Positions 1,423 through 62,622 of a stretch of DNA of 64,000 bases are shown here, one piece after another. The DNA comes from an uncultured Actinomycetota bacterium (GTDB lineage: Bacteria > Actinomycetota > Humimicrobiia > Humimicrobiales > Humimicrobiaceae). A program made the position numbers and the translations under genes. The notes beneath the pieces were generated by a model, which had not been told where the DNA came from, searched no databases, and worked only from the letters and a program-made list of their open reading frames with translations. Positions within the stretch are counted from its first letter, which is position 1; the number at the start of each line of letters is the position of its first letter. The stretch lies in the NCBI GenBank assembly GCA_964610385.1, contig CAZSXW010000004.1, positions 21,452 to 85,451 on the forward strand, given 5' to 3'.

Positions 1423-1424
1423 AT

Positions 1425-2522: not shown

Positions 2523-2523
2523 G

Positions 2524-3618
2524 ATGAAATCTCTGAATGCAAACAAACCAAAAACAAGACTATCGAATTCGAATCTTCTGTTTCTCATCGCCTTGGTTAT
2601 ATTTGCACTGATGTACTTGCTTGCCGTTATAAGTTTTCCGGGCAGTTTCATGCAGTTTCAGACCTTCTTTGACCTGTTCAACCTGAACGCTCCGCTCATC
2701 ATCATGACACTTGGTCTGTGCGTAGTTATGATCGTAGGCGGCATCGACATTTCCATCGGCGCGCAGTGTGGCCTGGTAACCATGGCCTGTGCCATGTTGC
2801 TGGAATCGGAAATGGGGAGCATTTGGGGCGCCTTACTTCTCGCGCTGGGTATAGGTATCGCGTTTGGTCTTTTGCAGGGATATCTTATTGCCTATCTTGA
2901 AATACAGCCATTTATCATAACGCTGGCAGGGTTATTCTTAGCGCAAGGACTGCTGACGACACTCCACAAAGATCCGATCAACGTGACTATGCCTGCTTTT
3001 GTTGCCTTGCGGGATTTTAAAATAATGATTCCTTGGCTTGGCACGCAAAACAGACTAGGCGTTTTCATCCCGTGTCATATCAAACCAGGCGTCATAGTTG
3101 TGGTGGTCCTTGTTGTCTTCTTCGCCGCCCTTATGAAGTGGTCGCGTTTTGGGCGCAATGTCTACGCTGTTGGCGGCAATATTCAGAGCGCTCGGATTCT
3201 CGGTATCAACGTAAAGAGAACGATATTCTTCTCATACGTGATAAGCGGATTGACGGCCGGCATCGCAGGCTTTGTGTTCATCATGATAACAGGAGCAGGC
3301 AATATTGGAAACGGGGCGTTGTTCGAATTAAAAGCAATAGCCTCGAATATAATAGGCGGAATTCTGCTCAACGGCGGCGTGGGGAACCTGCTTGGCGCGC
3401 CAATAGGCACACTGACTCTTCTGGTAATCAACGAACTGATCCGTGCAGCGGGTGTCCAATCAAACTTTCAAGCGATAGTAGCCGGGCTCTTGCTGTATCT
3501 CTTCATTGTGCTGCAAGGCATTGTTATATCGTTGCGTGGCGAGAGGAAATTCAGAATTGCTCTACCGCCCTGGCTGCGGCTGCCTTGGCTGAAGGGCAAG
3601 AAGAAGGCCGAGAAATAA
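2524..3618 (+). CDS. Second sugar ABC transporter permease
   Basis: A hydrophobic permease-fold protein starting one base after the first permease; transporters with two permeases of this kind resemble the YtfT/YjfF or xylose/ribose class. Confidence 0.8.
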   Translation: MKSLNANKPKTRLSNSNLLFLIALVIFALMYLLAVISFPGSFMQFQTFFDLFNLNAPLIIMTLGLCVVMIVGGIDISIGAQCGLVTMACAMLLESEMGSIWGALLLALGIGIAFGLLQGYLIAYLEIQPFIITLAGLFLAQGLLTTLHKDPINVTMPAFVALRDFKIMIPWLGTQNRLGVFIPCHIKPGVIVVVVLVVFFAALMKWSRFGRNVYAVGGNIQSARILGINVKRTIFFSYVISGLTAGIAGFVFIMITGAGNIGNGALFELKAIASNIIGGILLNGGVGNLLGAPIGTLTLLVINELIRAAGVQSNFQAIVAGLLLYLFIVLQGIVISLRGERKFRIALPPWLRLPWLKGKKKAEK

Positions 3619-20650: not shown

Positions 20651-21952
20651 TTACTTCTTATCCTTTCCTTTACCCCGGCTGAAATATTTGTTTATAATGT
20701 CTATCGCGCAGTATTTCCCGCACATGGTGCATTTATTGCTGCTGATCTTGCTCTCTTTTCTGAGCCTACCTGCTTTTTCAGGGTCAATAGACAGGTCTAT
20801 TTGTTTTTTCCAGTCCAGGTTCTTTCTGGCTATTGCCATTTGCAGGTCTTTATCAATAGCACCTCTGATACCCTTGGCAATATCTGCAGCATGAGCTGCA
20901 ATTCTGGTGATGATGACACCTTCCCTGACATCATCGGCAGTAGGGAGTCTTAGATGCTCGGAGGGTGTAAGATAACATAAATAGTCGGCGCCATAGTAAG
21001 CAGCCAGAGTCCCACCGATAGCACCTGTAATATGATCATAGCCCGGTGATATATCGGTAACAAGAGGCCCCAGGACATAAAAGGGTGCATCGTTGCAGAG
21101 CTTTTTTTCCAGTAAGACGTTTGCCTTTATATGATCGACAGGCATATGGCCGGGACCTTCTATTATTACCTGTACTCCCTCAGCCCTGGTTCTTTTGGCC
21201 AGTTCACCCAGTGTAATCAGTTCCTGTATCTGCCCCCTGTCTGTGGAGTCGGCGAGGCAGCCGGGCCGCAAACTATCTCCCAGGCTTAAAGTCACATCGT
21301 ATTTTTTAGCTATCTCCAGGAGTCTGTCGTAATGCTCAAATAGGGGATTTTCTTTCCGGTTATATAGCATCCATACAGCAAGGAAAGCTCCGCCTCTGCT
21401 TACAATGTCAAGGAGCCTGCCCTGTTCCTTTAATCTTTTTAAAGCTTCCATGGTCACACCACAGTGCACGGTCATAAAATCAACGCCGTCTTCTGCCTGT
21501 TTCTCTATAGCTTCAAATATATGGTCCTCACTCATATTTATAATACCTTTGATCTTGGCACACTCTATGGCAGCCTGGTAGATGGGGACTGTACCTACAG
21601 GTACAGGTGATCTCTCTATAATGGTTTTCCTGATTTTATCAATATTCCCACCGGTGCTTAAATCCATAATGGTATCGGCTCCCGCCTTGACTGCCGTGTC
21701 CAACTTTTTTATTTCATCCTTAAGGATGGTATGCTCCGAAGAAGTCCCTATGTTTGCATTTACTTTTGTCCTCAGGCCTTTTCCTATCCCTGATAAAGAT
21801 TTTAGAGTTTTGTGCTTTTTATTGTAGGGGATTACAATGCTTCCCCTTGCTATATTCTCGATCAAATACTGCAGCTTTACTCCTTCCTTTTCAGCTACAG
21901 TTTTCATTTCCTTTGTTGTTCTTCCCGATCTGGCCTCATTTAATAGAGTCAC
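20651..21952 (-). CDS. thiC: Phosphomethylpyrimidine synthase
   Basis: 433 aa with the highly conserved ThiC core and a C-terminal CxxCxxxxC Fe-S motif (CTMCGKYC). Confidence 0.9.
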   Translation of the reverse strand: MTLLNEARSGRTTKEMKTVAEKEGVKLQYLIENIARGSIVIPYNKKHKTLKSLSGIGKGLRTKVNANIGTSSEHTILKDEIKKLDTAVKAGADTIMDLSTGGNIDKIRKTIIERSPVPVGTVPIYQAAIECAKIKGIINMSEDHIFEAIEKQAEDGVDFMTVHCGVTMEALKRLKEQGRLLDIVSRGGAFLAVWMLYNRKENPLFEHYDRLLEIAKKYDVTLSLGDSLRPGCLADSTDRGQIQELITLGELAKRTRAEGVQVIIEGPGHMPVDHIKANVLLEKKLCNDAPFYVLGPLVTDISPGYDHITGAIGGTLAAYYGADYLCYLTPSEHLRLPTADDVREGVIITRIAAHAADIAKGIRGAIDKDLQMAIARKNLDWKKQIDLSIDPEKAGRLRKESKISSNKCTMCGKYCAIDIINKYFSRGKGKDKK

Positions 21953-22577
21953 TTATAATAACCTCCCTGAATTTTTTACATTCCTTCTCAATATCATCCT
22001 TGGTCACTATGGCTGAGATAACCGCTATTGACCTTGCGCCCGCTTCAAGGACACTTTTAATATTATCTTGGTTTATTCCGCCGATAGCTACAAAAGGGAT
22101 TTTTATTGCTTTTTTGATATATTTTATTAAATCGACCCCTGACGGCGTCCCGGCATCAGGCTTTGTAGTTGTTTCAAAAATTGGGCTGATGCCGATATAA
22201 TCCGCCCCTATTATTTCGGCTTCTATAGCTTCACCTATATTGTGGACAGTAAAACCGATTATTTTCTTATCTCCGAGTAGTCTCCTTGCATCCTGGTAAA
22301 GCATGTCCTCGTTTCCTAGGTGAACTCCATCGGCATCCACTGCCAGGGCAATATCTACCCTGTCATTTATTATAAAAAGAACGCTGTTCTCCCTGCAGAG
22401 CTGACCTATTTTTTTCGCTTCATCTGTCATCTCTCTGGTGTTTAAGTCTTTTTCTCTGTACTGGATTATTTTAACCCCTGCTCTTACTGCCGACCCAACA
22501 TCTTCAAGTACGGTTCTTCTGGTAAGTCTTGAGTCTGTTATAAAGTACAGATCTATATCATTCAGTCTTTCTTTCAT
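21936..22577 (-). CDS. thiE: Thiamine-phosphate synthase
   Basis: 213 aa of TMP-TENI fold. It overlaps thiC by 17 nt. Confidence 0.85.
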   Translation of the reverse strand: MKERLNDIDLYFITDSRLTRRTVLEDVGSAVRAGVKIIQYREKDLNTREMTDEAKKIGQLCRENSVLFIINDRVDIALAVDADGVHLGNEDMLYQDARRLLGDKKIIGFTVHNIGEAIEAEIIGADYIGISPIFETTTKPDAGTPSGVDLIKYIKKAIKIPFVAIGGINQDNIKSVLEAGARSIAVISAIVTKDDIEKECKKFREVIISDSIK

Positions 22578-23370
22578 CTATCCTCTTTTCAATTTTTTCC
22601 ATTTTTTTAATCTGGTCTTCTCTTAGGTCAAAAATTCTATCAAGTAAAACAGCTTTGAAGGCATCCGGTGTCTTTGCAGTTTCGGCGGCAATCTCTCCTG
22701 CTATTCCAAGAAAGGAAAGTGCATATGCAGAGGCCATAGTATAATCTTTCTCGACTGCAGCGAAGGTCCCTATCAACGAGCTGGCCATGCATCCTGAACC
22801 TACAAAACTTCCCATCATAGGATGACCGTTTTTACAGATATAAATATCCTTTCCGTTAGATATAATATCTTCCTTTCCCGTTATTACTACAGTAAGATGG
22901 TTGTTACTGGCCAAAGTTTTTGCTATTTCTGTCAGGTCTCCCTTTACCGATATTGCTTCAACGCCTTTTGTTTCTGCATCTGCTCCGGCAAGTGTTCCGA
23001 TTTCAGACGAATTTCCCTTAAGAATCGATACTTTGACTTTCTCCAGGATCTCTTTTGCCTTATCTGTTCTTAAATCCGTAGCACCCACGCCGACTGCATC
23101 CAGTACCACCGGTATGTCTTTTTCATTCGCCCTCCTGCCTGCCAGTATCATCGACTTAACCAGGTCCACCGTAAGAGTGCCAATATTCAAAACCAGAGCT
23201 CCTGATATGGAAGTCATCTGCTCGACTTCCTCAGGCGCGTGGGCCATGACAGGTAGGGCACCTGTGATCCTTACAATATTTGCACAGTCGTAAATGGTCA
23301 CCCAGTTTGTTATATGATGTATCAAGGGTTTCTGCTCTTTTATTTTAGTCAAAATCTCAATCATACCCAT
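22558..23370 (-). CDS. thiM: Hydroxyethylthiazole kinase
   Basis: 270 aa. It is the first gene downstream of the TPP riboswitch. Confidence 0.85.
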   Translation of the reverse strand: MGMIEILTKIKEQKPLIHHITNWVTIYDCANIVRITGALPVMAHAPEEVEQMTSISGALVLNIGTLTVDLVKSMILAGRRANEKDIPVVLDAVGVGATDLRTDKAKEILEKVKVSILKGNSSEIGTLAGADAETKGVEAISVKGDLTEIAKTLASNNHLTVVITGKEDIISNGKDIYICKNGHPMMGSFVGSGCMASSLIGTFAAVEKDYTMASAYALSFLGIAGEIAAETAKTPDAFKAVLLDRIFDLREDQIKKMEKIEKRIDERKTE

Positions 23371-23490: not shown

Positions 23491-23499
23491 TTTTATAGT

Positions 23500-23595
23500 T
23501 TTGACTTTTCCTACGCTAGCATTATCTAGGTCAGGTTTAGGGGTCGACGGTCTATTATTGAGACCGTCCTCTCAGCCAAATAAGCTCCCCCAAGT
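23500..23595 (-). promoter_or_regulatory. TPP (THI-box) riboswitch controlling thiM-thiE-thiC-thiL
   Basis: The minus strand reads GGGGAGC...CUGAGA...ACCC..AACCUGAcCUAGAUAAUGCUAGCGUAGGAAA. This matches the THI element consensus (GGGGUGC, CUGAGA, ACCUGAUCUGGAUAAUGCCAGCGUAGGGAA). Confidence 0.85.
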
Positions 23596-23659
23596 ATTTA
23601 TAAATATTTAATTTTCAAAGATTTTTCTTTATAATATAAAAGAAAAAATACATACAGAT

Positions 23660-47548: not shown

Positions 47549-47623
<75 letters not shown>

Positions 47624-47638
47624 ATAAAATTTTGAATT

Positions 47639-47791
47639 CTATAATTTTTTACTACTCATAATAGGTTCTTGGTTCAGCAGTTCTCTATATTCTGCTTTGG
47701 AATAAATAATATCTCTTATAAGATCAGTAAGTTCTCTTAGTTTGTTTGCCTTTTCATCTGGAAACTTCTTAAGAAATTCTTTATAATTTAT
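47639..47791 (-). pseudogene. Start-less 50-codon C-terminal gene fragment ending 16 bp from the tRNA 3' end (gene remnant)
   Basis: The minus-strand frame reads INYKEFLKKFPDEKANKLRELTDLIRDIIYSKAEYRELLNQEPIMSSKKL*, bounded upstream by an in-frame stop with no ATG, GTG or TTG. It is a possible remnant of a gene broken at the tRNA-associated integration site. Confidence 0.3.
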
Positions 47792-47900
47792 CTATGCTCC
47801 TAACGCTTATTTAAATTAGGAGTATATTATAATCACAGTTATAATTATTTGATAATACTAAATATTGGTTATATGATAAGGGACAATTCCGAAATACATT

Positions 47901-48917
47901 ATGCAGGATATAATAGAAAAAAAGCGATTATCTATTCTACAAATACTTCAGAACACAGATGATGTGGCAATAAGTAGCCACAAAATTACACGCAAACTAA
48001 AAGAAATGGGATATAAAATGAGCGAGCGTACTGTGCGTTTTCATCTGCTTTCTTTGGATAAAGACGGCTATACGGAGTATTTTCCAAAAAAAGGAAGAAG
48101 AATAACGGAGAAAGGGATTAACGAGCTATTACTTGCAAGGGCTTATGAAAAGGTGGGTTTTTTATCCACAAAAATAGATAGCATGACCTATAGTATGCAC
48201 TTCGATATTTATAAGAAAGAAGGCACTGTTGTTATAAATTTGAGCTATGTAAAACTGAAAGATATAAAAAAGGCATGGCCGTTGATGTGTAAAGTACTTG
48301 AAAAAAGACTTGGCATGGGCAAATTCCTTGTTTTCTTTAAACCGGGGGAAAGAATAGGACAGGCCACTGTTCCTGAAGACTGTATAGGCATAGGAACTGT
48401 CTGTTCCATAACTATTAACGGTATCCTTCTCCAGCATGGAATCCCCATAAGATCGAGATTCGGGGGCCTTCTAGAGATACGGAAAAATAAACCAAACCGG
48501 TTTGTAGCGATAATTAATTATGACGGAACGAGTTTAGATCCTCTTGAAATATTCATAAAAAGCGGTATGACGAATTATATACAGGCAGTAAAAAACGGCA
48601 ATGGTTTGATAGGTGCGAGTTTCAGAGAGATGCCATCGGACAGCAGAAGCCAAGTTGAAGATATCGCAGAAAAGATAGATGCAATAGGATTGGGCTGCTT
48701 TATGAAGATTGGTTATCCCGGTAAAAGTCTGTGTGAAATTCCTGTTAATGACGGTAGTTTTGGTTCAATAATAATCGGCGGTCTGAATCCCATAGCTATT
48801 TTGGAAGAATACAGAATAAATGTGCAGTCCAAAGCTCTTTCCTGTCTGATAGATTATAAAAAACTCTTTCCTTATACGGAAACGGAAAAAAGACTGAAAT
48901 CAATTCTTAATAAATAA
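47901..48917 (+). CDS. NrpR-like nitrogen regulatory repressor (N-terminal winged HTH plus one NrpR/DUF128 domain)
   Basis: 338 aa. The architecture and sequence resemble euryarchaeal NrpR. The genomic context (GltB-like protein, amt, glnK directly downstream) matches an NrpR regulon. Confidence 0.5.
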   Translation: MQDIIEKKRLSILQILQNTDDVAISSHKITRKLKEMGYKMSERTVRFHLLSLDKDGYTEYFPKKGRRITEKGINELLLARAYEKVGFLSTKIDSMTYSMHFDIYKKEGTVVINLSYVKLKDIKKAWPLMCKVLEKRLGMGKFLVFFKPGERIGQATVPEDCIGIGTVCSITINGILLQHGIPIRSRFGGLLEIRKNKPNRFVAIINYDGTSLDPLEIFIKSGMTNYIQAVKNGNGLIGASFREMPSDSRSQVEDIAEKIDAIGLGCFMKIGYPGKSLCEIPVNDGSFGSIIIGGLNPIAILEEYRINVQSKALSCLIDYKKLFPYTETEKRLKSILNK

Positions 48918-48959
48918 TACTCTTTTTTAAAAATCCCAGGATTACATTATAAAATTTAC

Positions 48960-49016
48960 TTGACAGCACTTCTTTATGCTCATATTATTGTGGCAATGAA
49001 TTACCACAATAATATT
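48960..49016 (+). promoter_or_regulatory. Strong sigma-70 promoter (TTGACA, 17-bp spacer, TATTAT) overlapped by a perfect 12-bp inverted repeat (ATATTATTGTGG, 10-nt spacer, CCACAATAATAT)
   Basis: TTGACA lies at 48960-48965 and TATTAT at 48983-48988. The palindrome at 48982-49015 has a classic repressor-operator geometry and lies 24 bp upstream of the GltB-like gene. Confidence 0.55.
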
Positions 49017-49039
49017 AAAAATCATAGGAGGTTAAATAA

Positions 49040-50680
49040 ATGATCCAGTGGCCTAAAACAAATGATGCTCTTGGGACTGTAAACAGAGGAAATCCTGCAG
49101 AATCAGGATTATGTACACTCTGCCGTGCAGACTGCAAGGGAAAATGTGAAACATGGCTTTCAAGTCTTCGGGGAAGAGAACTTCTCTATCCTAGGGATTT
49201 CGGCCATGTAACAGCAGGAAGCGCAAATACATGCGCTATAGGAGTATGCTACAATTCGTTACGAATACAGGGATACCTTTATGGTGCAGATTATCTTCCA
49301 GACGGAGTCACAAACAGCACAGATGACTGTGTTTTTCCTAATGTTTCCATAGAAACACAATTTGGCAGAGAAGTTAAAACAAAATGCCGTATTCCTATTA
49401 TGACTGGAGCATTAGGCTCTACATTTATTGCTGCGAAGTACTGGGATTCTTTTGCCATAGGAGCTGCCTTATCTGGCTTTCCTATTGTAGTAGGTGAGAA
49501 TGTTGTTGGTGTAGACAAAGAAGCTGTTATAGAAAACGGAAAGATAAAGAACGCGCCTGAATTGGATAGAAGAGTAGAAACGTTTTTAAGATACTATGAC
49601 GGATACGGCGCCATTATAGTACAGATGAATGTTGAGGACGCAAGAAATGGTGTTGCACAGTACCTTATTGAAAAATACGGAGACAAAGTAATCATAGAAC
49701 TGAAATGGGGACAGGGAGCAAAAGTGATCGGCGGTGAAATCCAGGTTACCAATTTAGATTATGCAATTTTTCTAAAGAAACGGGGATACATAGTAGATCC
49801 CGATCCTGAAAAACCAGAAGTTCAGGAAGCATTCAAACACGGTGCAATAAAATCTATAGCAAGGCACAGCAGGCTCGGTTATACAAACCTTTCCAGCGTA
49901 AGTGCTGTTGAAGAAAATTTTATGAATGCCGTAAAAGACCTCAGGTCATCAGGATATAAACGAATATCATTAAAAACCGGTTCATATGGAATGGAAGCTC
50001 TGGCCATGTCAATTAAATATGCATCTGAAGCGAATCTTGATCTTCTAACTATTGACGGTTCCGGCGGAGGAACTGGTATGAGCCCGTGGAACATGATGGA
50101 AAGCTGGGGTGTTCCATCTATACTTCTGCATGCAAAAGCATATGAATATGCAAAACTGCTTGAATCCAAAGGCAAGACAGTCGTAAATATGGCCTTTGCA
50201 GGCGGTCTTGCAAAAGAAGACCAAATTTTTAAAGCTCTTGCTCTCGGTGCTCCATATGCAAAACTTATATGCATGGGGCGTTCTTTAATGATTCCGGGAT
50301 ACCTTGGTTCGAATATTGAAGGTGTAATTAATCCGTCCAAAAAGGAACAGCTCAATGGCAATTGGAATGATTTACCAAAGTCTGTAACCAATTACGGCTC
50401 TACTCCTGAAGAAATTTTTGCAGGATACTATGATATTCAGAAAAAGGTCGGTAAAGACGAGATGAAGAATATTCCGCTCGGTGCTATTGCTGTTTATACC
50501 TTATGCGACAAACTTGGTGCAGGATTACAACAGCTTATGGCGGGAAACAGAATCTTTAAAACTGAAGGTATTACGAGAAACGAGATTTTCTCAGCAAACA
50601 GGGAAACAGAGGCTGAAACAGGCATTCCATTTATTACTGATGTTCAGGACGAAATAGCAAAGGAAATCTTAAGTAAATAG
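49040..50680 (+). CDS. Archaeal-type glutamate synthase large-subunit domain protein (FMN-binding GltS domain with an N-terminal Cys cluster)
   Basis: 546 aa with an N-terminal CTLCRADCKGKC Cys cluster and a GltS FMN-domain signature (IDGSGGGTGMSP, comparable to DGGTGASP). Confidence 0.6.
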   Translation: MIQWPKTNDALGTVNRGNPAESGLCTLCRADCKGKCETWLSSLRGRELLYPRDFGHVTAGSANTCAIGVCYNSLRIQGYLYGADYLPDGVTNSTDDCVFPNVSIETQFGREVKTKCRIPIMTGALGSTFIAAKYWDSFAIGAALSGFPIVVGENVVGVDKEAVIENGKIKNAPELDRRVETFLRYYDGYGAIIVQMNVEDARNGVAQYLIEKYGDKVIIELKWGQGAKVIGGEIQVTNLDYAIFLKKRGYIVDPDPEKPEVQEAFKHGAIKSIARHSRLGYTNLSSVSAVEENFMNAVKDLRSSGYKRISLKTGSYGMEALAMSIKYASEANLDLLTIDGSGGGTGMSPWNMMESWGVPSILLHAKAYEYAKLLESKGKTVVNMAFAGGLAKEDQIFKALALGAPYAKLICMGRSLMIPGYLGSNIEGVINPSKKEQLNGNWNDLPKSVTNYGSTPEEIFAGYYDIQKKVGKDEMKNIPLGAIAVYTLCDKLGAGLQQLMAGNRIFKTEGITRNEIFSANRETEAETGIPFITDVQDEIAKEILSK

Positions 50681-50713
50681 TGTTTTTATCCGGGAGAGCT
50701 GCTGTTTCACCGG

Positions 50714-50953
50714 GTGATTTTGAATATTAATTCCCTAAAACATAATTACAGTATTATAGATGGGAAGCCCATGTATCCTATATACCTGATAAAGGAGCAC
50801 AGACGGTACACTATTATGGTCACTACAGTAATGCAACAAGGGGAAGATTTAAGAAAGAAGATAGCCAACCAGGTTATCACATTATGGCTGATAGGGATAC
50901 TAATATATAATTTTTTACTAAAAAAGATGAGCAGTATTCGAAGAGAAGGATAA
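50714..50953 (+). CDS. Possible small membrane protein (79 aa)
   Basis: An ORF with a C-terminal hydrophobic helix (ITLWLIGILIYNFLL). There is no homology or RBS support. Confidence 0.2.
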   Translation: MILNINSLKHNYSIIDGKPMYPIYLIKEHRRYTIMVTTVMQQGEDLRKKIANQVITLWLIGILIYNFLLKKMSSIRREG

Positions 50954-51004
50954 AAGGCCATATGCTAATCCATCTTTTAAATCAGTGGATTTATTAAAAT
51001 AAAA

Positions 51005-51034
51005 AGTTCTAAAAGCGTCCAATACGGGGAGCCA
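51005..51034 (+). repeat. Degenerate copy 1 of the tRNA-Asn 3' half (att-like): AGTTCTAAAAGCGTCCAATACGGGGAGCCA
   Basis: It is nearly identical to copy 2 and is similar to the tRNA T-arm and acceptor sequence GGTTCAAGTCCTACCCGGGGAGCCA (GTTC, GTCC and CGGGGAGCCA are conserved). Confidence 0.5.
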
Positions 51035-51507
51035 GTAAGTTTTACTTCAATAATTCTGGAATCTTAAATACTTCTTTTTATCGACAAATCTATCATTAAT
51101 ATATTTATGCAGCATGCTTGATATTAATGTCTGATAGGGATACCTTTAGTATTAACAAGAGATTTTATTTGCTCAAGATCATTATAATACATTTATAAAT
51201 CGGTTCGAAATTTCACAACCTGGTGCAGCCACCTATTTAGGACACCTAATCATTAAACAAATCCAGATATTTCCCTAACATAAAAATACAATTTTCCTAC
51301 TAAATCAATTCCCTATATACATATATGCATTGTTTAACACGCAACTCTTAAATTGTTTTAGAAAGGATAGTCCTGGTACCAGTTAGATATAAAAGAATCG
51401 GAGAAAGTTAACATGAAATTCATATTTATTTAACATGATTGTAACATTCATATACTATAATTAATTTTTCAGCTTAAAAATTTAAATATTACTTTGAAAG
51501 GACTCTA

Positions 51508-52746
51508 GTGGCTATTAGTAATGGGGATAATGCTTGGATGCTGGTTTCTGCAGCAATGGTAATGCTTATGACTCCTGGGTTGGCCTTTTTTTACGGAGGA
51601 ATGGTAAGAAGAAAAAATGCTATTTCCACAATAACGATGAGCTTTATGACACTGGGACTTATAAGTGTATTATGGGTTATTTTTGGATATAGTCTGGCAT
51701 TCGGAACGGACTTTGGAGGGGTTATTGGAGGTTTTGATTTTCTGATGCTCAGAAATGTCGGGCAGGAAGCCTCTGCTGTTTATGCAACTACGGTGCCCCA
51801 TCTTACTTTCATGGTCTTTCAGGGAATGTTTGCCATAATAACGGTAGCGCTTATTTCTGGTGCTGTAGTTGAGCGAATGAAATTTGCATCTATTTTAATA
51901 TTCTCTGTTCTATGGTTTTCGCTTGTTTATGTGCCTATAGCTCACTGGGTCTGGGGCGGAGGCTGGCTTGCAAACCTTGGAGTCCTTGATTTTGCAGGTG
52001 GTACTGCGGTCCATATAAATGCCGGTGTTTCAGCACTATCGCTTGCCATCTTATTAGGACCAAGGAAAGGATATGGTGGGTTGTCGGAAATGAGGCCCCA
52101 TAACGTTCCTTTTATTGTTATAGGAGCAGGCATTCTATGGTTTGGATGGTTTGGCTTCAATGCCGGCAGTGCATTGGCCTCTGGCGGACTTGCTTCAAGT
52201 GCTTTTGTGGCTACTAATGTTGCCGCAGCCGCAGCCGCGCTTACTTGGATGTTCCTGAGCTGGTTCTATCACAGACCGACGGCTTCCGGTATAGCCATAG
52301 GGGCTGTATCGGGACTCGTGGCAGTGACGCCTGCCGCCGGGTTTATCAGCCCTATATTCGGCTTACCTATCGGAATAGGCGCTTCAATAATCTGTTTTTA
52401 TATGATGAGACTTAGAAACAAGACAAGGATTGATGAATCGCTTGATGTATGGGCATGTCATGGAATGGCAGGCACATGGGGCTCAATTACGACTGGTGTA
52501 TTTGCGTCCATGGCAGTTAACCCAGCAGGAGCAGATGGGTTGATATATTCGGGAAGTTTCATTCTTTTAGCAAAACAATTCCTGGCAGTTATTGTAGTAT
52601 GGATCTTCTCTTTTGGAATGACATGGCTTATTGGTAAATTAATAGACGTGACGATAGGCCTCAGGGTCAGCTCTACCGAAGAAGCTATCGGACTTGATAT
52701 TTCACAGCATGGAGAAAAAGCATATACAAGAGAAGTGGATATTTAA
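51508..52746 (+). CDS. amt: Ammonium transporter (GTG start)
   Basis: 412 aa with 11 transmembrane helices and the Amt signature (DFAGGTAVHINAG). Confidence 0.9.
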   Translation: MAISNGDNAWMLVSAAMVMLMTPGLAFFYGGMVRRKNAISTITMSFMTLGLISVLWVIFGYSLAFGTDFGGVIGGFDFLMLRNVGQEASAVYATTVPHLTFMVFQGMFAIITVALISGAVVERMKFASILIFSVLWFSLVYVPIAHWVWGGGWLANLGVLDFAGGTAVHINAGVSALSLAILLGPRKGYGGLSEMRPHNVPFIVIGAGILWFGWFGFNAGSALASGGLASSAFVATNVAAAAAALTWMFLSWFYHRPTASGIAIGAVSGLVAVTPAAGFISPIFGLPIGIGASIICFYMMRLRNKTRIDESLDVWACHGMAGTWGSITTGVFASMAVNPAGADGLIYSGSFILLAKQFLAVIVVWIFSFGMTWLIGKLIDVTIGLRVSSTEEAIGLDISQHGEKAYTREVDI

Positions 52747-52747
52747 A

Positions 52748-53086
52748 ATGCAGAAGATAGAAGCCATAATAAAAGAAGATGCGTTTAACAGTATCAAGAA
52801 TGCCCTAGAAGAAGGTGGTTTTATTAGCATGACAGTCTGTAATGTTATAGGACGGGGTAAGCAAAAAGGCCTGGCATTAAAATGGAGGTCGTCCGAACAC
52901 AGAGTCGAATTTCTTCCAAAAGTTAAGATAGAACTTGTAGTCGACGACAAGGATCTTGATAGAGTCCTGGACATAATCTGCACAATAGCCAACACAGGAT
53001 CGGTTGGTGACGGGAAAATTTTTGTTATTCCAGTCGGTGAAGTTATAAGGATAAGGACTGGAGAACGAGGAGCGACTGCTATATAA
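52748..53086 (+). CDS. glnK: Nitrogen regulatory protein P-II
   Basis: 112 aa starting MQKIEAIIKE..., with a T-loop region (GRGKQKG). Its ATG lies 2 nt after the amt stop. Confidence 0.9.
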   Translation: MQKIEAIIKEDAFNSIKNALEEGGFISMTVCNVIGRGKQKGLALKWRSSEHRVEFLPKVKIELVVDDKDLDRVLDIICTIANTGSVGDGKIFVIPVGEVIRIRTGERGATAI

Positions 53087-53395: not shown

Positions 53396-53425
53396 AGTTC
53401 TAAAGGCGTCCAATACGGGGAGCCA
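53396..53425 (+). repeat. Degenerate copy 2 of the tRNA-Asn 3' half (att-like)
   Basis: AGTTCTAAAGGCGTCCAATACGGGGAGCCA matches copy 1 at 29 of 30 positions. Confidence 0.5.
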
Positions 53426-53593
53426 GAGATTTTTATTTGGCTTTCCCAAATTCCGGAGCAGCCAGCCCCCTAACAGTGGTAGGCCTTCATATCTTCCCAG
53501 TTGTAGAGTAGTCTTTGTAACAATTTATGTAAAAGATAGTCAAATATAATGGGAATTTAAAATATTTTTTATGTAAAGGATATAGTTGTTGAT

Positions 53594-54895
53594 ATGTCAC
53601 TAATAGATTTTTCAAGAAATAAGATTAAGAAACTATTTACTAAGGAAAGCAATATAGTACTTAAAAATAATGTTCCTGCTTACGAGAGTCTTGAATATAA
53701 GTTTGATGATATAGACGAATTCGGGCTTTATCTTCATGTTCCTTTTTGTAGGCAAATTTGCTCATATTGTCCTTATAATAAGGAGATTTATAAACCCGAA
53801 TTAGCAAAACTTTATACAAAGGCTGTAAAGAAGGAAATTGATTTCTATAGTACGCTTTTTAGTGGAAAGCCTGTAACATCATTCTATATTGGTGGCGGTA
53901 CTCCCACAACTATGCTTTACAGTGGGATTTCTGAGATTATAGAATATATATATAGAAATTTTAATATGCAGTGTGGTATACATATAGAAAGTCATCCTAA
54001 TGACTTAAATAATAATAATCTCAATACTATAAAATCTCTCGGCATAAAATACCTGAGTACAGGAGTAGAAGCTCTTGATGATAAATACCTAAATTTTCTT
54101 AATAGACCATATAATACTAAAGAAGTAAAGGAAGTAATTGAAAGAGTAGTCAGTAAAGGATTTAAATGTTTTAATGTAGACTTCATTTTTGCTTTACCTG
54201 ACCAGTCATATAGCGAGATAGAAAAGGCAGGCCATGAGTTAGTTAAAATGGGTGTGAATCAGGTAGCAGCTTATCCATTCTTTAAATTTCCATATACTAA
54301 AATGGGCGGAAATTCTGATGAAAGCAATTACAGTATATCAACAATATTTAGAAGACGTAAAATGTTAAGCATCCTCGAAAATATTTTCTATAATTCTGAT
54401 TTTGAGAGAACTTCTGTCTGGGCATTCACAAAAAAGGGAATATCAAAATATTGTTCTGTAACTGTGCCTCTTTATGTTGGCATTGGTGCTAGTGCTGGAA
54501 CATACCTAAAGGATATTTTTTATTTAAATACTTTCAATGTTTCTGAGTATACTACTGTTATGAATAGCGGAAAGCCACCAATTGCCTTATCGCTTGATCT
54601 TTCAAGAAACATGCAGATGGCATGGTGGTTTTACTGGAGAGTATATGAAACTAGATTTAAGAGAAGCGATTTTAAAAAAAGATTCGATGTGCAGTTTAAT
54701 AAAATATATGGAAAATATATTAAATTATTTTCTTTATTTGGTTTTATAAAAAACGATAATAAAGACCAAATAATTCTTTCAGATAGAGGTTCATACTGGT
54801 TGCATGCAGTTGAAGACCTGTTTTCATTAAACTATATAGGTAAGTTATGGGGAACTTCCAAACAAGAACCCTGGCCTAAAATGGTAGAATTGTAA
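53594..54895 (+). CDS. Radical SAM protein, HemN-like (oxygen-independent coproporphyrinogen-III oxidase family)
   Basis: A CxxxCxxC motif (CRQICSYC) and an HemN-type GGGTPT motif. GC is about 29%, lower than its neighbours. Confidence 0.7.
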   Translation: MSLIDFSRNKIKKLFTKESNIVLKNNVPAYESLEYKFDDIDEFGLYLHVPFCRQICSYCPYNKEIYKPELAKLYTKAVKKEIDFYSTLFSGKPVTSFYIGGGTPTTMLYSGISEIIEYIYRNFNMQCGIHIESHPNDLNNNNLNTIKSLGIKYLSTGVEALDDKYLNFLNRPYNTKEVKEVIERVVSKGFKCFNVDFIFALPDQSYSEIEKAGHELVKMGVNQVAAYPFFKFPYTKMGGNSDESNYSISTIFRRRKMLSILENIFYNSDFERTSVWAFTKKGISKYCSVTVPLYVGIGASAGTYLKDIFYLNTFNVSEYTTVMNSGKPPIALSLDLSRNMQMAWWFYWRVYETRFKRSDFKKRFDVQFNKIYGKYIKLFSLFGFIKNDNKDQIILSDRGSYWLHAVEDLFSLNYIGKLWGTSKQEPWPKMVEL

Positions 54896-54960
54896 TAGAA
54901 TTAAAAAGATGAAATTTGCTCCCATTTATCTTCAAAATTAGGAAGTTCATTAAAGTAAAA

Positions 54961-54990
54961 AGTTCGAAATGTATCTACTAAGGGGAGCCA
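54961..54990 (+). repeat. Degenerate copy 3 of the tRNA-Asn 3' half (att-like)
   Basis: AGTTCGAAATGTATCTACTAAGGGGAGCCA matches copy 1 at 23 of 30 positions. The left flank TTAAAGTAAAA also matches copy 1 (TTAAAATAAAA). Confidence 0.4.
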
Positions 54991-55045
54991 AACGATGTCT
55001 CTTCACCAACAAACGAGGTAACCCACTCTCTAATAATATTGTATT

Positions 55046-55128
55046 TTTACTTGACGAAGTAAAAAATAAGTATTATTATATCAATATACGATATAACGAG
55101 CTACGATATAACGTAAAACGATATAATA
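55046..55128 (+). promoter_or_regulatory. Promoter (TTGACG, 17-bp spacer, TATTAT) followed by three direct repeats of ACGATATAA(C/T)(G/A) at 15-bp period (55088, 55103, 55118); candidate operator of the PadR gene
   Basis: Read directly from the sequence. The repeats lie at the predicted transcription start of the PadR gene. Confidence 0.45.
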
Positions 55129-56673: not shown

Positions 56674-56884
56674 ATAGTCTATCTTCCTATACATCAAATT
56701 TTGGATTTTCAATTTATAAAAGAAAGATTCCATTTGTCAAGTATTTCAATCTCCAATTTGGAATAATAGTAGATTAGAAGAAGCAATAACTTACCAGCTA
56801 TAATTTGTTTTCACTCTTGATATATAAACGTAATTGTTATATGATATATTAATTTTATATATATATAAAGGGGAGCGATGCAGT

Positions 56885-57805
56885 ATGAAAATAGCAGATG
56901 ATGTTACAAAGTTAATAGGCGGTACTCCATTAGTCAGGCTTAATAAATTAACTTCGGGAATAGAAAATACTATTATAGCTAAGTTGGAGTGTTTTAATCC
57001 TCTGTCCAGTGTCAAAGATAGAATTGGTATAAGTATGATCGAAGCTGCTGAAAAACAGGGGCTGATTAAGAAAGATACGATTATTCTGGAACCTACCAGT
57101 GGTAACACTGGAATTGCTCTGGCTTTTGTCTGCGCCACCAAAGGGTATAAGCTCATCCTTACCATGCCTGATACAATGAGCCTTGAACGAAGAGTTTTAC
57201 TAAAAGCCTTTGGAGCTGAATTAATCCTTACCCCGGGCAAAGAAGGTATGAGAGGTGCCGTTAGGAAAGCTGAAGGATTAGCAAAGGTCAACTCTCGGTA
57301 TTTTATACCTCAGCAATTTAAAAACCCGGCTAATCCAGAAATTCATCGTAAGACCACAGCTGGAGAGATTTGGGGAGACACAGATGGCAAAGTAGACATT
57401 TTAGTTGCTGGAGTAGGTACAGGAGGCACTATTACAGGAGTAGCTGAACTAATTAAAAAAAGAAAGCCTGTCTTCAAAGCAATCGCGGTTGAACCTGAAG
57501 ATTCACCGGTTCTTTCTGGTGGGGAGCCTGGATTGCACAGGATTCAAGGAATTGGTGCAGGGTTTGTGCCCGAGGTTTTAAGAACAGATTTAGTGGATGA
57601 GGTTATTCGGGTAACCTATAATGATGCTGCCGAAACTGCAAGAAGGTTGGCTAGGGAAGAAGGATTATTGGTCGGTATTTCTTCCGGTGCAGCAGCTTGG
57701 GCGGCAATAGAGGTCGGCAAAAGAAAAGAGAATAAAAACAAACTCATTGTTGTAGTTTTTCCGGATACGGGAGAAAGATATCTTTCAACGGATTTGTTTA
57801 AATAA
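56885..57805 (+). CDS. cysK: Cysteine synthase A (O-acetylserine sulfhydrylase)
   Basis: 306 aa with a PLP-lysine region (SVKDR) and GNTG. The RBS AAAGGGGAG lies upstream. Confidence 0.9.
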
Positions 57806-57949: not shown

Positions 57950-59158
57950 ATGGCAAAGACGATAACTGAAATCAATGAAAAAATCAAAAAGGGAAATGTT
58001 GTAGTTGTTACTGCAGAGGAGATTATTGACATTGTAGACAAGGAAGGTGTAAAAAAGGCTGCTGAAAAAGTAGACGTAGTTACTACTGCCACTTTCGGGC
58101 CAATGTGTTCTTCTGGTGCATATTTCAACATCGGTCATGCTAAACCCAAAATAAAACTCGGTGGAGGCAGATCATATTTAAACGAAGTACCCGTGTATAC
58201 GGGCTTTGCTGCTGTGGACGTTTACATTGGGGCCACTGCTATACCTGATGACGACCCGCGCAATAAGATTTTCCCCGGGGAGTTTAAATATGGAGGTGGC
58301 CATGTGATCGAGGATTTGGTAGCGGGTAAGGATTTAAAGTTTGAAGCCAGTGCCTATGGTACAGATTGTTATCCGCGGAAGAAGTTAGAGACTTGGTTAA
58401 ACATCAAGGACCTTAATGAGGCAGTGCTTTTTAATCCAAGAAACGCTTACCAAAACTACAATGTAGCTGTTAACCTTTCTGGCAAGATCATCTACACCTA
58501 CATGGGAGTACTTAAGGACAATTTAAAGAATGCTAACTACTGTAGTGCGGGACAACTTTCCCCACTTTTAAATGACCCATATTACAAAACTATTGGAATT
58601 GGAACGAAGATCTTCCTAGGGGGAGGTAAAGGTCATGTTGTCTGGCAGGGAACTCAACACAATCCTACAGTAAAGAGAAAAGATAACGGTGTTCCTCAAG
58701 TACCAGCGGGTGCTTTAGCCGTTTTAGGAGACCTTAAACAGATGAAACCTGAATGGCTGATAGGTACTACCATGGTAGGATATGGTGTAACTTTAACTGT
58801 TGGTATAGGTATACCTATACCAATTCTTAATGAAGAAATATGTCGATATACTGCAGTGAAGGATGAGGAAATATGGGCTCAGGTAGTCGATTACAGTGAG
58901 GCTTATCCGCAGGGGAAAAAGGAAAATCTTGGTGAGGTAAACTATTCGCAACTTAAAAGCGGTAAGATTACAATCCGGGGCAAAGAGGTTCCAACAGGAA
59001 ATCTTTCCAGTTATCCAAAAGCAGTGGAGATTGCTAATATTCTGAAAGAATGGATTAAAGATGGTAGTTTTCTACTGGGTGAACCTGTGGCATACCTGCC
59101 AGGCGCGGATAGTGGATATACTTTTAAACCTCTAAAGGAAAGGCCGATTAAAGAGTGA
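57950..59158 (+). CDS. DUF39/COG1900 homocysteine-biosynthesis protein (sulfide-dependent, methanogen MA1821-type)
   Basis: 402 aa with the characteristic COG1900 sequence (VVTTATFGPMCSSGAYFN...). It is followed by an NIL-ferredoxin partner gene. Confidence 0.7.
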   Translation: MAKTITEINEKIKKGNVVVVTAEEIIDIVDKEGVKKAAEKVDVVTTATFGPMCSSGAYFNIGHAKPKIKLGGGRSYLNEVPVYTGFAAVDVYIGATAIPDDDPRNKIFPGEFKYGGGHVIEDLVAGKDLKFEASAYGTDCYPRKKLETWLNIKDLNEAVLFNPRNAYQNYNVAVNLSGKIIYTYMGVLKDNLKNANYCSAGQLSPLLNDPYYKTIGIGTKIFLGGGKGHVVWQGTQHNPTVKRKDNGVPQVPAGALAVLGDLKQMKPEWLIGTTMVGYGVTLTVGIGIPIPILNEEICRYTAVKDEEIWAQVVDYSEAYPQGKKENLGEVNYSQLKSGKITIRGKEVPTGNLSSYPKAVEIANILKEWIKDGSFLLGEPVAYLPGADSGYTFKPLKERPIKE

Positions 59159-59248
59159 TTTAACTGAAAAAATGGGGGCGCAGATGGACTGGCTTTGTAT
59201 CAATATGTGTCTGCGCCTCCCGTGCTAAATTTTTCGGGGGTGGTTTTT

Positions 59249-59656
59249 ATGATATCCAAAAGAATAGTCCTTCATTTTCCGCATAAACTCGTTGATCGGC
59301 CCGTGGTATACAAACTGGTAAAAGATTATAACTTAGAGTTCAATATACTGAAGGCCTATGTCACACAGAGGGAAGAAGGGTTATTGGTTTTAGAATTAAC
59401 TGGTGAAAATTCCAACTACAAACAAGGTATTAAATATCTTTCAGAGGCTGGCGTAAAGATACAGCCTTTAGAACAGGACATCATTCGTAATGAAAGAAGG
59501 TGTACTGATTGCGGGGTGTGCGTACCAATTTGTCCGACCGGCGCCTTGGTTGTGGAACCTATAACCAGGAAAGTTCACTTTTATGATAATAAGTGCATTG
59601 CTTGCGAGCTTTGTGTAAAAGCATGTCCGGTGAAAGCAATGGAGATATATTATTAA
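59249..59656 (+). CDS. NIL-domain plus 2x[4Fe-4S] ferredoxin (MA1822-type partner of DUF39)
   Basis: An N-terminal NIL-like domain and two CxxCxxCxxxCP motifs (CTDCGVCVPICP, CIACELCVKACP). The probable start is MISKRIV, preceded by the RBS GGGGGTGG. Confidence 0.7.
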   Translation: MISKRIVLHFPHKLVDRPVVYKLVKDYNLEFNILKAYVTQREEGLLVLELTGENSNYKQGIKYLSEAGVKIQPLEQDIIRNERRCTDCGVCVPICPTGALVVEPITRKVHFYDNKCIACELCVKACPVKAMEIYY

Positions 59657-61932: not shown

Positions 61933-62622
61933 TCATCCCAGTCTGTACCCGGCCTTCTCCCATGCCTTGCGCATTACCGGGTTGCGGCGCAGATAGGTAT
62001 CCACTTTGTTCTTTTCCACTCTGTTAAGCGGGCAGGAGAAGTTAATACACCGGGGACAGATGAGTGTCCAAAGTACGATAAAAAAAGCTACTATGCATGC
62101 AATAGTTGCTCCGGTTATTCCGATCATCCCAAGTAATGTAAGATTCCCATACATCGAATAGCGGGATGCGATTTGAAATATGCCGTAAGCCTGGACCGCG
62201 ATAGGGAAGGCGCCGAAGATTACAAAACCCACGATCAGGGATATCTTCTCAAACCGGTTCATGGGTCCAGGGTGATAGCGCCATAACTTAATAGTACCGT
62301 GATTGGCAAGACAGCGAAGCATTCTACCACTGCGGGCATAGTAGGGGCAGTGGGAGCAAAGAACCCTTATTTCGAAGAAAATGAAGAAAAATACCCAGAA
62401 CCCGAAGTAGACCGTCAGTGGCCACCATAATCCCGCAATTATTCCCACCATTACCATCCCGAAGATCGCCACCAGCGCGAAAGGGATAGCAGACAGCAGG
62501 AATCCTGTGAGCGCCCAAGCATCCCACTTACAGTTCAGTCTTTCCCTATTCTCACACGTCGCGCAGTCGGCTTCCTCATCCCAGGTGCAGATTCGGAAAG
62601 GATTTGGTGATTTCATTAACAT
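61933..62622 (-). CDS. Hypothetical Cys-rich polytopic membrane protein (GC-rich island)
   Basis: Multiple Cys pairs (CATCEN, CSHCPYY, CPRCINFSCP) with four to five transmembrane helices. GC is about 48% against a local background of 33-40%. Confidence 0.5.
   Translation of the reverse strand: MLMKSPNPFRICTWDEEADCATCENRERLNCKWDAWALTGFLLSAIPFALVAIFGMVMVGIIAGLWWPLTVYFGFWVFFFIFFEIRVLCSHCPYYARSGRMLRCLANHGTIKLWRYHPGPMNRFEKISLIVGFVIFGAFPIAVQAYGIFQIASRYSMYGNLTLLGMIGITGATIACIVAFFIVLWTLICPRCINFSCPLNRVEKNKVDTYLRRNPVMRKAWEKAGYRLG

Follow-up and report, generated by a model that had tools for sequence, protein, structure and literature searches.

Organization of the locus

The 64,000-nt window (the whole stretch of DNA analysed, to which all coordinates refer) contains, directly downstream of tRNA-Asn(GTT), four genes in one orientation, which encode an NrpR-like regulator, a stand-alone relative of glutamate synthase (the gltB-like protein), an ammonium transporter (Amt) and a P-II protein of the GlnK type. 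The nrpR and gltB-like genes probably constitute a bacterial regulator-target module under a 2-oxoglutarate-sensing repressor, with amt-glnK as a separate unit and both as cargo of a cassette interval. The genome and metagenome contigs retrieved for comparison are labelled L001-L140.

The four same-strand open reading frames (ORFs; 47901-48917, 49040-50680, 51508-52746 and 52694/52748-53086) lie where an earlier note on this DNA had placed them, with the nrpR-like ORF beginning 277 nt 3' of the tRNA, while dnaG and rpoD are immediately 5' of the tRNA. The identities given in that note, namely a regulator with a winged helix-turn-helix (wHTH) and an NrpR domain, a flavin mononucleotide (FMN)-domain glutamate synthase protein with an N-terminal cluster of four cysteines, an Amt transporter and a P-II protein, are all confirmed by the profile searches and alignments described below, and the att-like repeats that it mentioned do exist.

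47549-47623, plus strand: tRNA-Asn(GTT) (ARAGORN; Rfam RF00005, 74 bits), left edge of the variable interval
47860-50769, plus strand: block of nrpR and the gltB-like gene, 2.9 kb (blastn against L087 8823-11729, 93.6% identity)
47901-48917, plus strand: nrpR-like gene, 338 aa (PF08461, PF01995)
49040-50680, plus strand: gltB-like gene, 546 aa, Fe-S/FMN 'glutamate synthase-related' (partial match to PF01645)
51508-52746, plus strand: amt ammonium transporter gene, 412 aa, GTG start (PF00909, TIGR00836)
52748-53086, plus strand: glnK-type P-II gene, 112 aa counted from MQKIEA (PF00543)

The NrpR-like regulator

The 338-aa protein contains an N-terminal winged helix (PF08461, residues 11-76, E 7.5e-16) and one NrpR regulatory domain (NRD; residues 85-322, matching positions 1-236 of the 238 of PF01995, E 1.5e-79). 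In a phmmer search, residues 88-327 of the NRD region align with 3NEK, the NrpR-like domain of Methanocaldococcus jannaschii MJ0159 (E 1.5e-28, 33% identity), where the cysteine of the GTVCS motif (Cys168), which is invariant in 27 homologs, aligns with a cysteine of MJ0159. No NCBIfam family scores above its cut-off for this protein. Judged by its domains, the regulator is a true member of the NrpR family.

A homolog search gives 2820 cluster representatives, and among the best 120 of these (51-95% identical, about 335 aa) every taxon name given is bacterial, many of the close homologs being annotated by the Joint Genome Institute as 'global nitrogen regulator NrpRI'. In GTDB, 435 species representatives encode an NrpR relative. 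The best 80 of these 435 are all bacterial and share 49-60% identity with the window protein, and they come from about ten phyla, including Spirochaetota, FCPU426, Firestonebacteria, Thermodesulfobacteriota, Actinomycetota, Planctomycetota, Rokubacteria, Dehalococcoidia, Poribacteria and others. Within these 80, the window NrpR is nearest to Spirochaetota (59-60%), compared with 51-54% for other Actinomycetota. On these similarities, the window NrpR sits in a large bacterial clade. A second nrpR paralog, 36-41% identical, adjoins nrpR in L029, L045, L065, L068, L075, L085 and L088, and none is present in the window. NrpR is known to occur in 'certain Bacteria', although bacterial homologs are only touched on in passing (PMC2723118), and a literature search finds no study of bacterial NrpR, the functional work found being all on methanogens.

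Gene neighbourhood of bacterial nrpR

Linkage was counted in the 80 best GTDB nrpR loci, within flanks of 7 kb. A gltB-like or glutamate dehydrogenase (GDH; gdh) gene lies near nrpR in 67 of the 80 loci, comprising 52 loci with gltB-like (19 of them also with a nuoF-like gene) and 15 with gdh, and several of the other loci stop a short distance from nrpR. The occurrence of gdh in the same genomic slot in other lineages suggests a non-orthologous replacement of the gltB-like gene. In contrast, amt is found near nrpR in 0/80 loci and glnK in 1/80. The nrpR and gltB-like genes are immediate neighbours in 33 loci, of which 30 are divergent and 3 co-directional as in the window. The block of these two genes recurs in L087 at 93.6% identity, with entirely different neighbours and without amt. 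Only nrpR and the gltB-like gene travel together, and a single unit of all four genes of the window is not supported.

The target operon of the Actinomycetota loci, and of certain spirochaete ones, comprises a nuoE-like gene, a nuoF-like gene and a gene for a 2Fe-2S/4Fe-4S protein, followed by gltB-like. Such operons (nuoE-like, 2Fe-2S; nuoF-like, FMN/NADH and 4Fe-4S; Fer2_4/Fer4; gltB-like) are present in L031, L036, L088 and L090 and in the actinomycetotal L033, L047, L067 and L074, where they are preceded by NrpR-type sites. This arrangement points to a glutamate synthase of an undescribed kind, with several subunits and a link to NADH, in which the stand-alone FMN protein would be the basic component.

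Predicted operator and promoter

The sequence GGAA-N6-TTCC, the operator first proposed for this locus, has no match in the 64-kb window. Palindromes were enumerated in the 33 nrpR/gltB-like intergenic regions, with the other 927 kb of the loci as background. GGCAA-N4-TTGCC is present in 25/33 of these regions and GGCAA-N2-TTGCC in 23/33, where N4 sites occur at 1.4 per kb (0.02 per kb elsewhere in the loci) and N2 sites at 1.8 per kb (0.04 per kb elsewhere), so that the palindromes are 50-65 times denser in the nrpR/gltB-like intergenic DNA, the N4 form about 65-fold. The N0, N1, N3, N5 and N6 spacings have 0 sites inside the regions and at most 0.004 per kb outside, and most of the 'outside' N2/N4 matches also adjoin nrpR, in loci beyond the 33. 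Clusters of N2 sites are found at about 58 and 190 bp 5' of the nrpR ATG, while N4 sites lie 30-150 bp 5' of the target gene. The genes beside perfect sites are nrpR (48), gltB-like (23) and others (36), the identified others being GDH genes or nuoE-like operon leaders, except for one histidine kinase gene beside a gltB-proximal site. The sites are palindromes without mismatch, many of them reaching 16-18 bp. The N2 and N4 classes co-occur, sometimes in one promoter region (L006-L085; L010 8021 and 8177; L033 6810; many at about 6943), and the high-GC Actinomycetota loci have N2 sites for both nrpR and the nuoE-like operon. The predicted operator of the host clade is an 18-bp palindrome, TGTGGCAAT-N2-ATTGCCACA, of which L090 has a perfect copy ahead of nuoE-like, and L088 and L089 have near-perfect copies ahead of gltB-like.

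The corresponding features of the window are as follows:

48960-48988, plus strand: sigma-70-type promoter of gltB-like, TTGACA, 17-nt spacer, TATTAT (11/12 matches, promoter scan)
48982-49015, no strand assigned: predicted NrpR operator, 34-bp inverted repeat with arms ATATTATTGTGGCAAT/ATTACCACAATAATAT, 94% complementary
47966-47979, no strand assigned: second operator-like site, GGCAATAAGTAGCC, one mismatch, inside nrpR codons 22-27

The core of the predicted operator (GGCAATGAATTACC, 48992-49005) lies 35 nt before the gltB-like ATG, and the window copy of the operator (TGTGGCAATgaATTaCCACA), contained in the 34-bp inverted repeat, starts 4 nt past the -10 hexamer. The predicted operator extends over both the -10 box and the expected start point of transcription at the gltB-like promoter, a classic position for a repressor site. 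It is identical in L087, the 94%-identical relative, while neighbouring intergenic bases differ. The site inside nrpR has two mismatches in L087 and is only partly kept, its conservation being weakly informative in a coding position, and its role as an autoregulatory operator is doubtful. The bacterial proteins form a widespread branch of NrpR with a predicted operator of its own and a probable core target, a glutamate-forming enzyme, unlike the archaeal paradigm.

The strain-variable interval downstream of tRNA-Asn

Four further features mark the interval that contains the nitrogen genes and its right flank:

50950-51034, plus strand: repeat unit A, about 85 nt, ending in the 30-nt core AGTTCTAAAAGCGTCCAATACGGGGAGCCA (core 51005-51034), joint between nrpR/gltB-like and the next cassette
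51047-51192, minus strand: decayed, frameshifted remnant of a CopG/BrnA-type antitoxin gene
53396-53425, plus strand: 30-nt core B, one mismatch to core A, right edge of the variable interval (L128 comparison)
53594-54895, plus strand: HemN/HemW-like radical S-adenosylmethionine (SAM) gene, backbone flank outside the nitrogen genes (PF04055; NCBIfam matches below equivalog cut-offs)

Cores A and B are identical at 32/33 positions over a 33-nt stretch, where none is expected by chance. The last 10 nt of the core are identical to the 3' end of tRNA-Asn (CGGGGAGCCA, 47614-47623), beyond which the core and the tRNA 3' end have scattered matches (14/18). The metagenome assembly L001 breaks at 51033, and a 20-mer of the core is present on at least 50 metagenome contigs (L091-L140). 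Each repeat unit is about 80-90 nt long and consists of a family-specific left part and the universal core, with sharp edges on both sides. The cargo between cores comprises glycosyltransferase, hydratase, hydrolase, flavodoxin-like, radical SAM, BrnTA-like, AbiE and Fic genes.

The sister strain L128 matches the window up to the tRNA-Asn end at 47623 (92.8%), carries unrelated cargo between this point and core B, and regains the match at the first base of core B, keeping it across the HemN-like gene (L128 2127-3787 corresponding to window 53396-55051, 94.5%). The HemN/HemW-like gene is kept in L128 and L093, and L091, L108, L110 and L122 also differ downstream of rpoD-tRNA-Asn. The stretch from tRNA-Asn to 53425 is a strain-variable, repeat-divided cassette hotspot.

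Fragments of the antitoxin remnant (MLHKYINDRFVDKK and NDLEQIKSLVNTKGIP) match a 96-aa protein of L102 which contains PF12441 and PF14384, and an intact BrnT/BrnA-like cassette follows the same core in L102 and L115. The DNA of 51004-51185 is about 90% identical to L098, L102 and L115, and amt-glnK seems to have displaced, or been fused with, a toxin-antitoxin cassette. The parts of the first cassette not common to L087 are 47624-47859 and 50770-50950. Two possibly decayed gene fragments, both without a Pfam match, are a 46-codon open stretch on the minus strand at about 47640-47780 (EFLKKFPDEKANKLRELTDLIRD...) and a 79-aa ORF at 50714-50953.

Other readings of the repeat units were rejected. 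They contain no attC-like hairpin, as the mean folding z-score is -0.3 over 52 units and the core pairs inconsistently; they are not a coding N-terminus (WLPVLDAFRT, minus strand), as the frame is not kept across families; and they are not partial tRNA genes, as neither ARAGORN nor Rfam gives a match. No recombinase is encoded by any ORF in 47.6-55 kb of the window, and no recombinase or IntI is found on the 50 core contigs by ORF listing and sampled Pfam scans, most of these contigs being short.

The 85-nt units may be selfish repeats of the repetitive extragenic palindrome (REP) or miniature inverted-repeat transposable element (MITE) kind, inserted independently, with the variable interval arising from ordinary insertions and deletions. 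This explanation is unlikely, though it keeps appreciable weight, as the units are short, discrete and intergenic, fall into sequence families, have no conserved hairpin and occur on contigs where no recombinase gene is seen in those inspected. Against independent insertion, both copies share the same strand in 9/9 two-copy contigs (window included), the left and right flanks of the cores combine freely, with the same right-hand module after 2-3 different left families, and tRNA-Asn lies upstream of the core on the same strand in 5 other contigs. In addition, the homology with L128 stops at the 3' terminus of the tRNA and starts again precisely with the first base of the core, and, much as in cassette arrays, toxin-antitoxin and Abi genes abound in the cargo.

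A more specific proposal, tentative and rather doubtful, is that the 30-nt core and the tRNA-Asn 3' end could be the recombination site of an undescribed gene-cassette exchange system in Humimicrobiia-like Actinomycetota, which would move entire modules of metabolism and regulation, for example nrpR plus gltB-like and amt-glnK, between strains. Its cargo would here include a glutamate synthase of one subunit, dependent on ammonia, linked to ferredoxin or NuoEF and governed by a bacterial NrpR. The outcome of such a system would be integron-like, with co-oriented, interchangeable cargo and toxin-antitoxin genes, while attC hairpins and a visible IntI would be missing from it.

Horizontal acquisition of the nitrogen genes, as suggested previously for this locus, is plausible in view of the variable, tRNA-adjacent interval, but the archaeal or syntrophic source named with it is not supported, the relatives being bacterial. 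The donors are most probably bacteria, to judge from protein similarities, because the window NrpR is nearest to Spirochaetota and the gltB-like protein to Omnitrophota, while the Actinomycetota loci carry a gltB-like class that is only about 50% identical.

The gltB-like protein

The 546-aa protein matches PF01645 (Glu_synthase) over residues 292-452 only, corresponding to profile positions 189-351 of 369 (64.3 bits, cut-off 20.4; E 1.5e-17), and 22/22 diverse members of its family match this profile, weakly. Its N-terminal cysteine cluster (C25-x2-C28-x3-C32-x3-C36) is invariant across these 22 members, which are 43-83% identical. The conserved motifs of the family are ELKWGQGAK.IGGE and DGxGGGTGMSPW, which resemble the substrate and FMN motifs of GltS. 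No amidotransferase (glutaminase) or GXGXG domain is present in the protein, where Pfam gives PF01645 only, or in its neighbours, which are nrpR and amt in the window and nuoE/F-like genes elsewhere. No NCBIfam family scores above its cut-off for gltB-like proteins, and the GltB model NF008730 gives 13.7 bits against a cut-off of 1047. From these domain and motif data, the protein is a stand-alone relative of glutamate synthase with a Cys cluster and an FMN region.

The family is very large, as at least 8000 candidates pass the threshold. Besides near-identical copies, the listed homologs are 76-83% identical to the window protein and all named ones are bacterial, coming from Omnitrophota, Brevinematales, Clostridia, Spirochaetota and Syntrophorhabdaceae and being labelled 'FMN-binding glutamate synthase family protein'; the Omnitrophota proteins are 83% identical. 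The second class, at about 50% identity, is the one linked to NuoEF-like genes.

The enzyme probably makes glutamate, a provisional assignment based on the weak Pfam homology, the Fe-S motif and the gene context. Since in some other lineages gdh stands behind the same operators, and in others an NADH-oxidising NuoEF-like module precedes gltB-like, an ammonia-dependent, ferredoxin- or NuoEF-driven reductive amination of 2-oxoglutarate is inferred. Alternatively, the protein may be another FMN/Fe-S oxidoreductase of the Glu_synthase superfamily acting on a different 2-oxo acid, an amine or an imine. This would fit the partial PF01645 match (64 bits), the absence of an NCBIfam equivalog and of a PDB match, and the missing amidotransferase and GXGXG domains, but it is rather improbable: the gene is predicted to be controlled by a member of a regulator family that senses 2-oxoglutarate, a bona fide GDH replaces it behind the same operators in 15/80 loci, the QGAK..GGE and DG.GGGTG motifs are kept, and 76-83% identity across phyla is a housekeeping-like conservation.

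The amt-glnK pair

The Amt protein matches PF00909 (E 3.6e-125) and TIGR00836 (456.8 bits, cut-off 343.3), and the P-II protein matches PF00543 (E 4.8e-28). The most likely start of the latter is MQKIEA at 52748, which leaves a gap of 1 nt after the amt stop. As read from the translation (GLALKWRSSEH51RVEFLPK), position 51 of the P-II T-loop is His, not Tyr. The P-II protein also has a Trp at 46, where Escherichia coli GlnK has Tyr. It therefore lacks the canonical uridylylation/adenylylation site, and no glnD gene follows.

The 828-nt gap between gltB-like and amt contains the repeat unit and the opposite-strand decayed antitoxin gene, promoter-like hexamers of amt's own are found at 51430-51458, and no NrpR-type site with up to 2 mismatches is present in 51035-51507, 5' of amt. 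The pair is a separate ammonium uptake and sensing unit. It may still be under NrpR control, by read-through from the gltB-like promoter or through a degenerate operator, with the pieces having been assembled separately. The genes are adjacent, on the same strand and share a coherent functional theme, no convincing intrinsic terminator is found between gltB-like and amt, and amtB-glnK is an NrpR target in methanogens. This possibility is nevertheless improbable, given the composition of the gap, the missing site, the promoter-like hexamers, the absence of amt beside nrpR in the 80 loci and from the L087 block.

Five 5-nt boxes with an 11-nt period precede amt (TTAAC 51408, TTCAT 51419, TTAAC 51430, GTAAC 51441 and ATACT 51452), and the array (51408-51461) abuts TATAAT at 51456-51461. 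The boxes are reminiscent of actinobacterial OmpR-type GlnR boxes (gTnAC-n6-GnAAC), a low-information and speculative resemblance.

Host affiliation, composition and other features of the window

The description of the backbone as Firmicutes-like in the earlier note is not confirmed, as the named relatives of the housekeeping protein GlyS (708 aa) are all metagenome-assembled genomes of Actinomycetota, including Ca. Humimicrobiaceae, at identities of at most 63%. On this protein, the host looks like a low-GC actinomycetote near Humimicrobiia. The same proteins are also found in marine-sediment-type metagenomes. The GC content of the nitrogen genes, previously regarded as above that of the backbone, is ordinary: the four genes have a GC fraction of 0.37-0.45 and a third-codon-position fraction (GC3) of 0.31-0.38, within the window ranges of 0.31-0.50 and 0.24-0.59, and a compositional island at the locus was rejected on both values. 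The true compositional outliers of the window, where the average is about 0.39, are 31-3618 (ABC-transporter-like genes, GC 0.48-0.50, GC3 0.56-0.59) and 61933-62622 (a 229-aa Cys-rich ORF with no Pfam match, GC 0.49, GC3 0.58).

An Rfam scan of the 277-, 122- and 828-nt gaps of the locus, at gathering and permissive thresholds, gives no RNA element besides the tRNA. Elsewhere in the window, a thiamine pyrophosphate riboswitch (RF00059, 69 bits) lies at 23491-23601 on the minus strand, 5' of thiamine-biosynthesis-like genes at 20651-23370. A gene pair for HcyBio (PF01837, E 1.4e-153) and a NIL-domain/2x[4Fe-4S] ferredoxin protein occupies 57950-59656, adjoined by a PALP enzyme gene at 56834-57805. 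This pair is the homocysteine sulfur-incorporation system first described in methanogens, and it is another 'archaeal-looking' trait in an anaerobic actinobacterium.

Proposed mechanism and significance

The explanation which best accounts for the locus, and which is probably correct, is a bacterial module of nrpR and its gltB-like target under a 2-oxoglutarate-sensing repressor, accompanied by a separate amt-glnK unit, with both as cassette cargo. An NrpR dimer would bind TGTGGCAAT-N2-ATTaCCACA, covering the gltB-like promoter at its -10 box and start site, and block transcription. Under nitrogen shortage, 2-oxoglutarate would accumulate and release the repressor, by analogy with archaeal NrpR, which in methanogens is released by this effector (PMC2723118, PMC9765008). 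The enzyme would then form glutamate from 2-oxoglutarate, ammonium and a low-potential reductant, the latter being ferredoxin, or a NuoEF-like NADH module in other lineages. The amt-glnK pair would act as an independent uptake and sensing unit without an NrpR site, and both units would be cargo in the interval from the tRNA-Asn 3' end to 53425, partitioned by the dispersed 30-nt core.

Domain content, bacterial affiliation, synteny, the conservation and placement of the operator, the mobility of the block and the variability of the hotspot are observed in the sequences, whereas the effector, the direction of regulation, the reaction of the enzyme and the way in which cassettes are exchanged are deduced. 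Several points weigh against this explanation. The window operator has one core mismatch (TTaCC), and no N2-type autoregulatory site is found 5' of the window nrpR. Searches of PDB with phmmer and with the family profile give no solved GltS for the gltB-like protein, only spurious matches to de novo TIM barrels. Its AlphaFold2 model (30-sequence alignment) has a mean predicted local distance difference test score (pLDDT) of 54.9, with the N-terminal 134 residues unmodelled and the Cys region below 40, and Foldseek against PDB gave generic TIM barrels only (TM <0.3), which were discarded as uninformative. It would be physiologically unusual for nitrogen limitation to induce an ammonia-dependent enzyme of low affinity. 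The host taxonomy comes from a single housekeeping protein, for which no named relative exceeds 63% identity. The effector assumed here, and the direction in which regulation would work, are carried over from methanogens (PMC2723118, PMC9765008).

The GGCAA-Nx-TTGCC sites may instead be sigma-54 promoters or belong to another regulator, such as an NtrC-type activator, as TGGCA...TTGC resembles the -24/-12 elements, nitrogen genes are often sigma-54 dependent, and it is not usual for a single dimeric regulator to have sites of two spacings (N2 and N4). Sigma-54 promoters need GG-N10-GC, which corresponds to the N5 spacing here, and as this has 0 sites in the nrpR/gltB-like intergenic regions, the sigma-54 promoter reading of the palindrome was rejected. 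The wider alternative is quite improbable as well, in that the sites are perfect palindromes, often of 16-18 bp, lie about 58 bp 5' of nrpR in dozens of loci from different phyla, track nrpR whatever the adjacent target, and in the window lie 3' of a good sigma-70 promoter.

A single archaeal-type NrpR regulon of all four genes, taken up recently from a methanogen or a syntrophic archaeal partner along the lines of the earlier note, is very improbable and largely refuted. In its favour, the discovery and characterisation of NrpR concern Euryarchaeota only, the targets of NrpR in Methanococcus maripaludis include amtB-glnK, and the locus lies in a variable, tRNA-adjacent interval. Against it, the best 80 of the 435 relatives are bacterial at 49-60% identity (against 33% to archaeal 3NEK), the named gltB-like relatives at 76-83% are all bacterial, neither GC nor GC3 is out of the ordinary, the window has no match to the archaeal operator, amt-glnK is unlinked to nrpR in the 80 loci and has no operator 5' of amt, and glutamate synthase stands outside the methanogen regulon, which in M. 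maripaludis comprises nif, glnK-amtB, glnA, mod and an alanine symporter (PMC2723118); the glutamate synthase transcript is unresponsive in Methanothermococcus thermolithotrophicus (PMC9765008).

NrpR is treated in the literature as a euryarchaeal nitrogen repressor, and the comparative data on the bacterial nrpR and gltB-like module provide concrete predictions, cheap to test by experiment, for anaerobic bacteria of hundreds of lineages, most of them uncultured, namely a defined operator (GGCAA-N4/N2-TTGCC) and a core regulon of glutamate-forming enzymes rather than nif or glnA. A highly conserved, putative Fe-S flavoenzyme appears interchangeable with GDH and is sometimes coupled to a NuoEF-like module. 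If these predictions hold, bacterial nitrogen metabolism would gain a new way of assimilating ammonium and a new circuit that senses 2-oxoglutarate. The repeat-delimited interval beside tRNA-Asn may reveal how modules move between genomes. Nothing here overturns current concepts.

Comparison with known systems

The NrpR of M. maripaludis shares with the window protein the N-terminal winged helix and the NRD (PF01995), as well as a palindromic operator of 14-bp span (GG..-N..-..CC) overlapping the promoter. It has two NRDs, whereas the window protein has one and is associated with a bacterial sigma-70 promoter. The targets adjacent to bacterial nrpR are gltB-like, nuoEF-like plus gltB-like, and gdh, in contrast to nif, glnA and amtB. 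The predicted operator of the window and its family is GGCAA-N4/N2-TTGCC, unlike the M. maripaludis consensus GGAA-N6-TTCC (PMC2723118). NrpRI of Methanosarcina mazei resembles the window protein in combining a wHTH with a single NRD and in its length class, but is archaeal, whereas the window protein is bacterial. M. mazei NrpRI has an NrpRII partner.

The gltB-like protein has in common with the FMN domain of GltB/GltS and with the stand-alone archaeal GltB type the PF01645 region, the QGAK..GGE and DG..GGTG motifs and a putative Fe-S motif. Unlike the alpha subunit of GltB/GltS, it is without amidotransferase and GXGXG domains, and its Cys motif (C-x2-C-x3-C-x3-C) is N-terminal. NADP-glutamate dehydrogenase (GdhA) is its proposed functional analogue, with gdh in the same operator-controlled position in 15/80 loci, though the fold and cofactors of GdhA are unrelated and the gltB-like enzyme would need an Fe-S/FMN electron path, for which a NuoEF-like module is present in 19 loci. 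The amt and P-II genes are adjacent and translationally close, as in the amtB-glnK operons of most prokaryotes, and differ from the usual pair in the His51 of P-II and in having no glnD and no NrpR-type site upstream.

Like tRNA-targeted islands, the interval has a tRNA at one boundary and a content that differs between sister strains, whereas only 10 nt are common with the tRNA, no integrase is visible and composition does not deviate. Compared with integrons, the repeats have no attC-like hairpin and their conserved part is the 30-nt 3' core, not a 7-nt R' box, but, as in integron arrays, co-oriented repeats of about 85 nt delimit interchangeable cargo that includes toxin-antitoxin genes.

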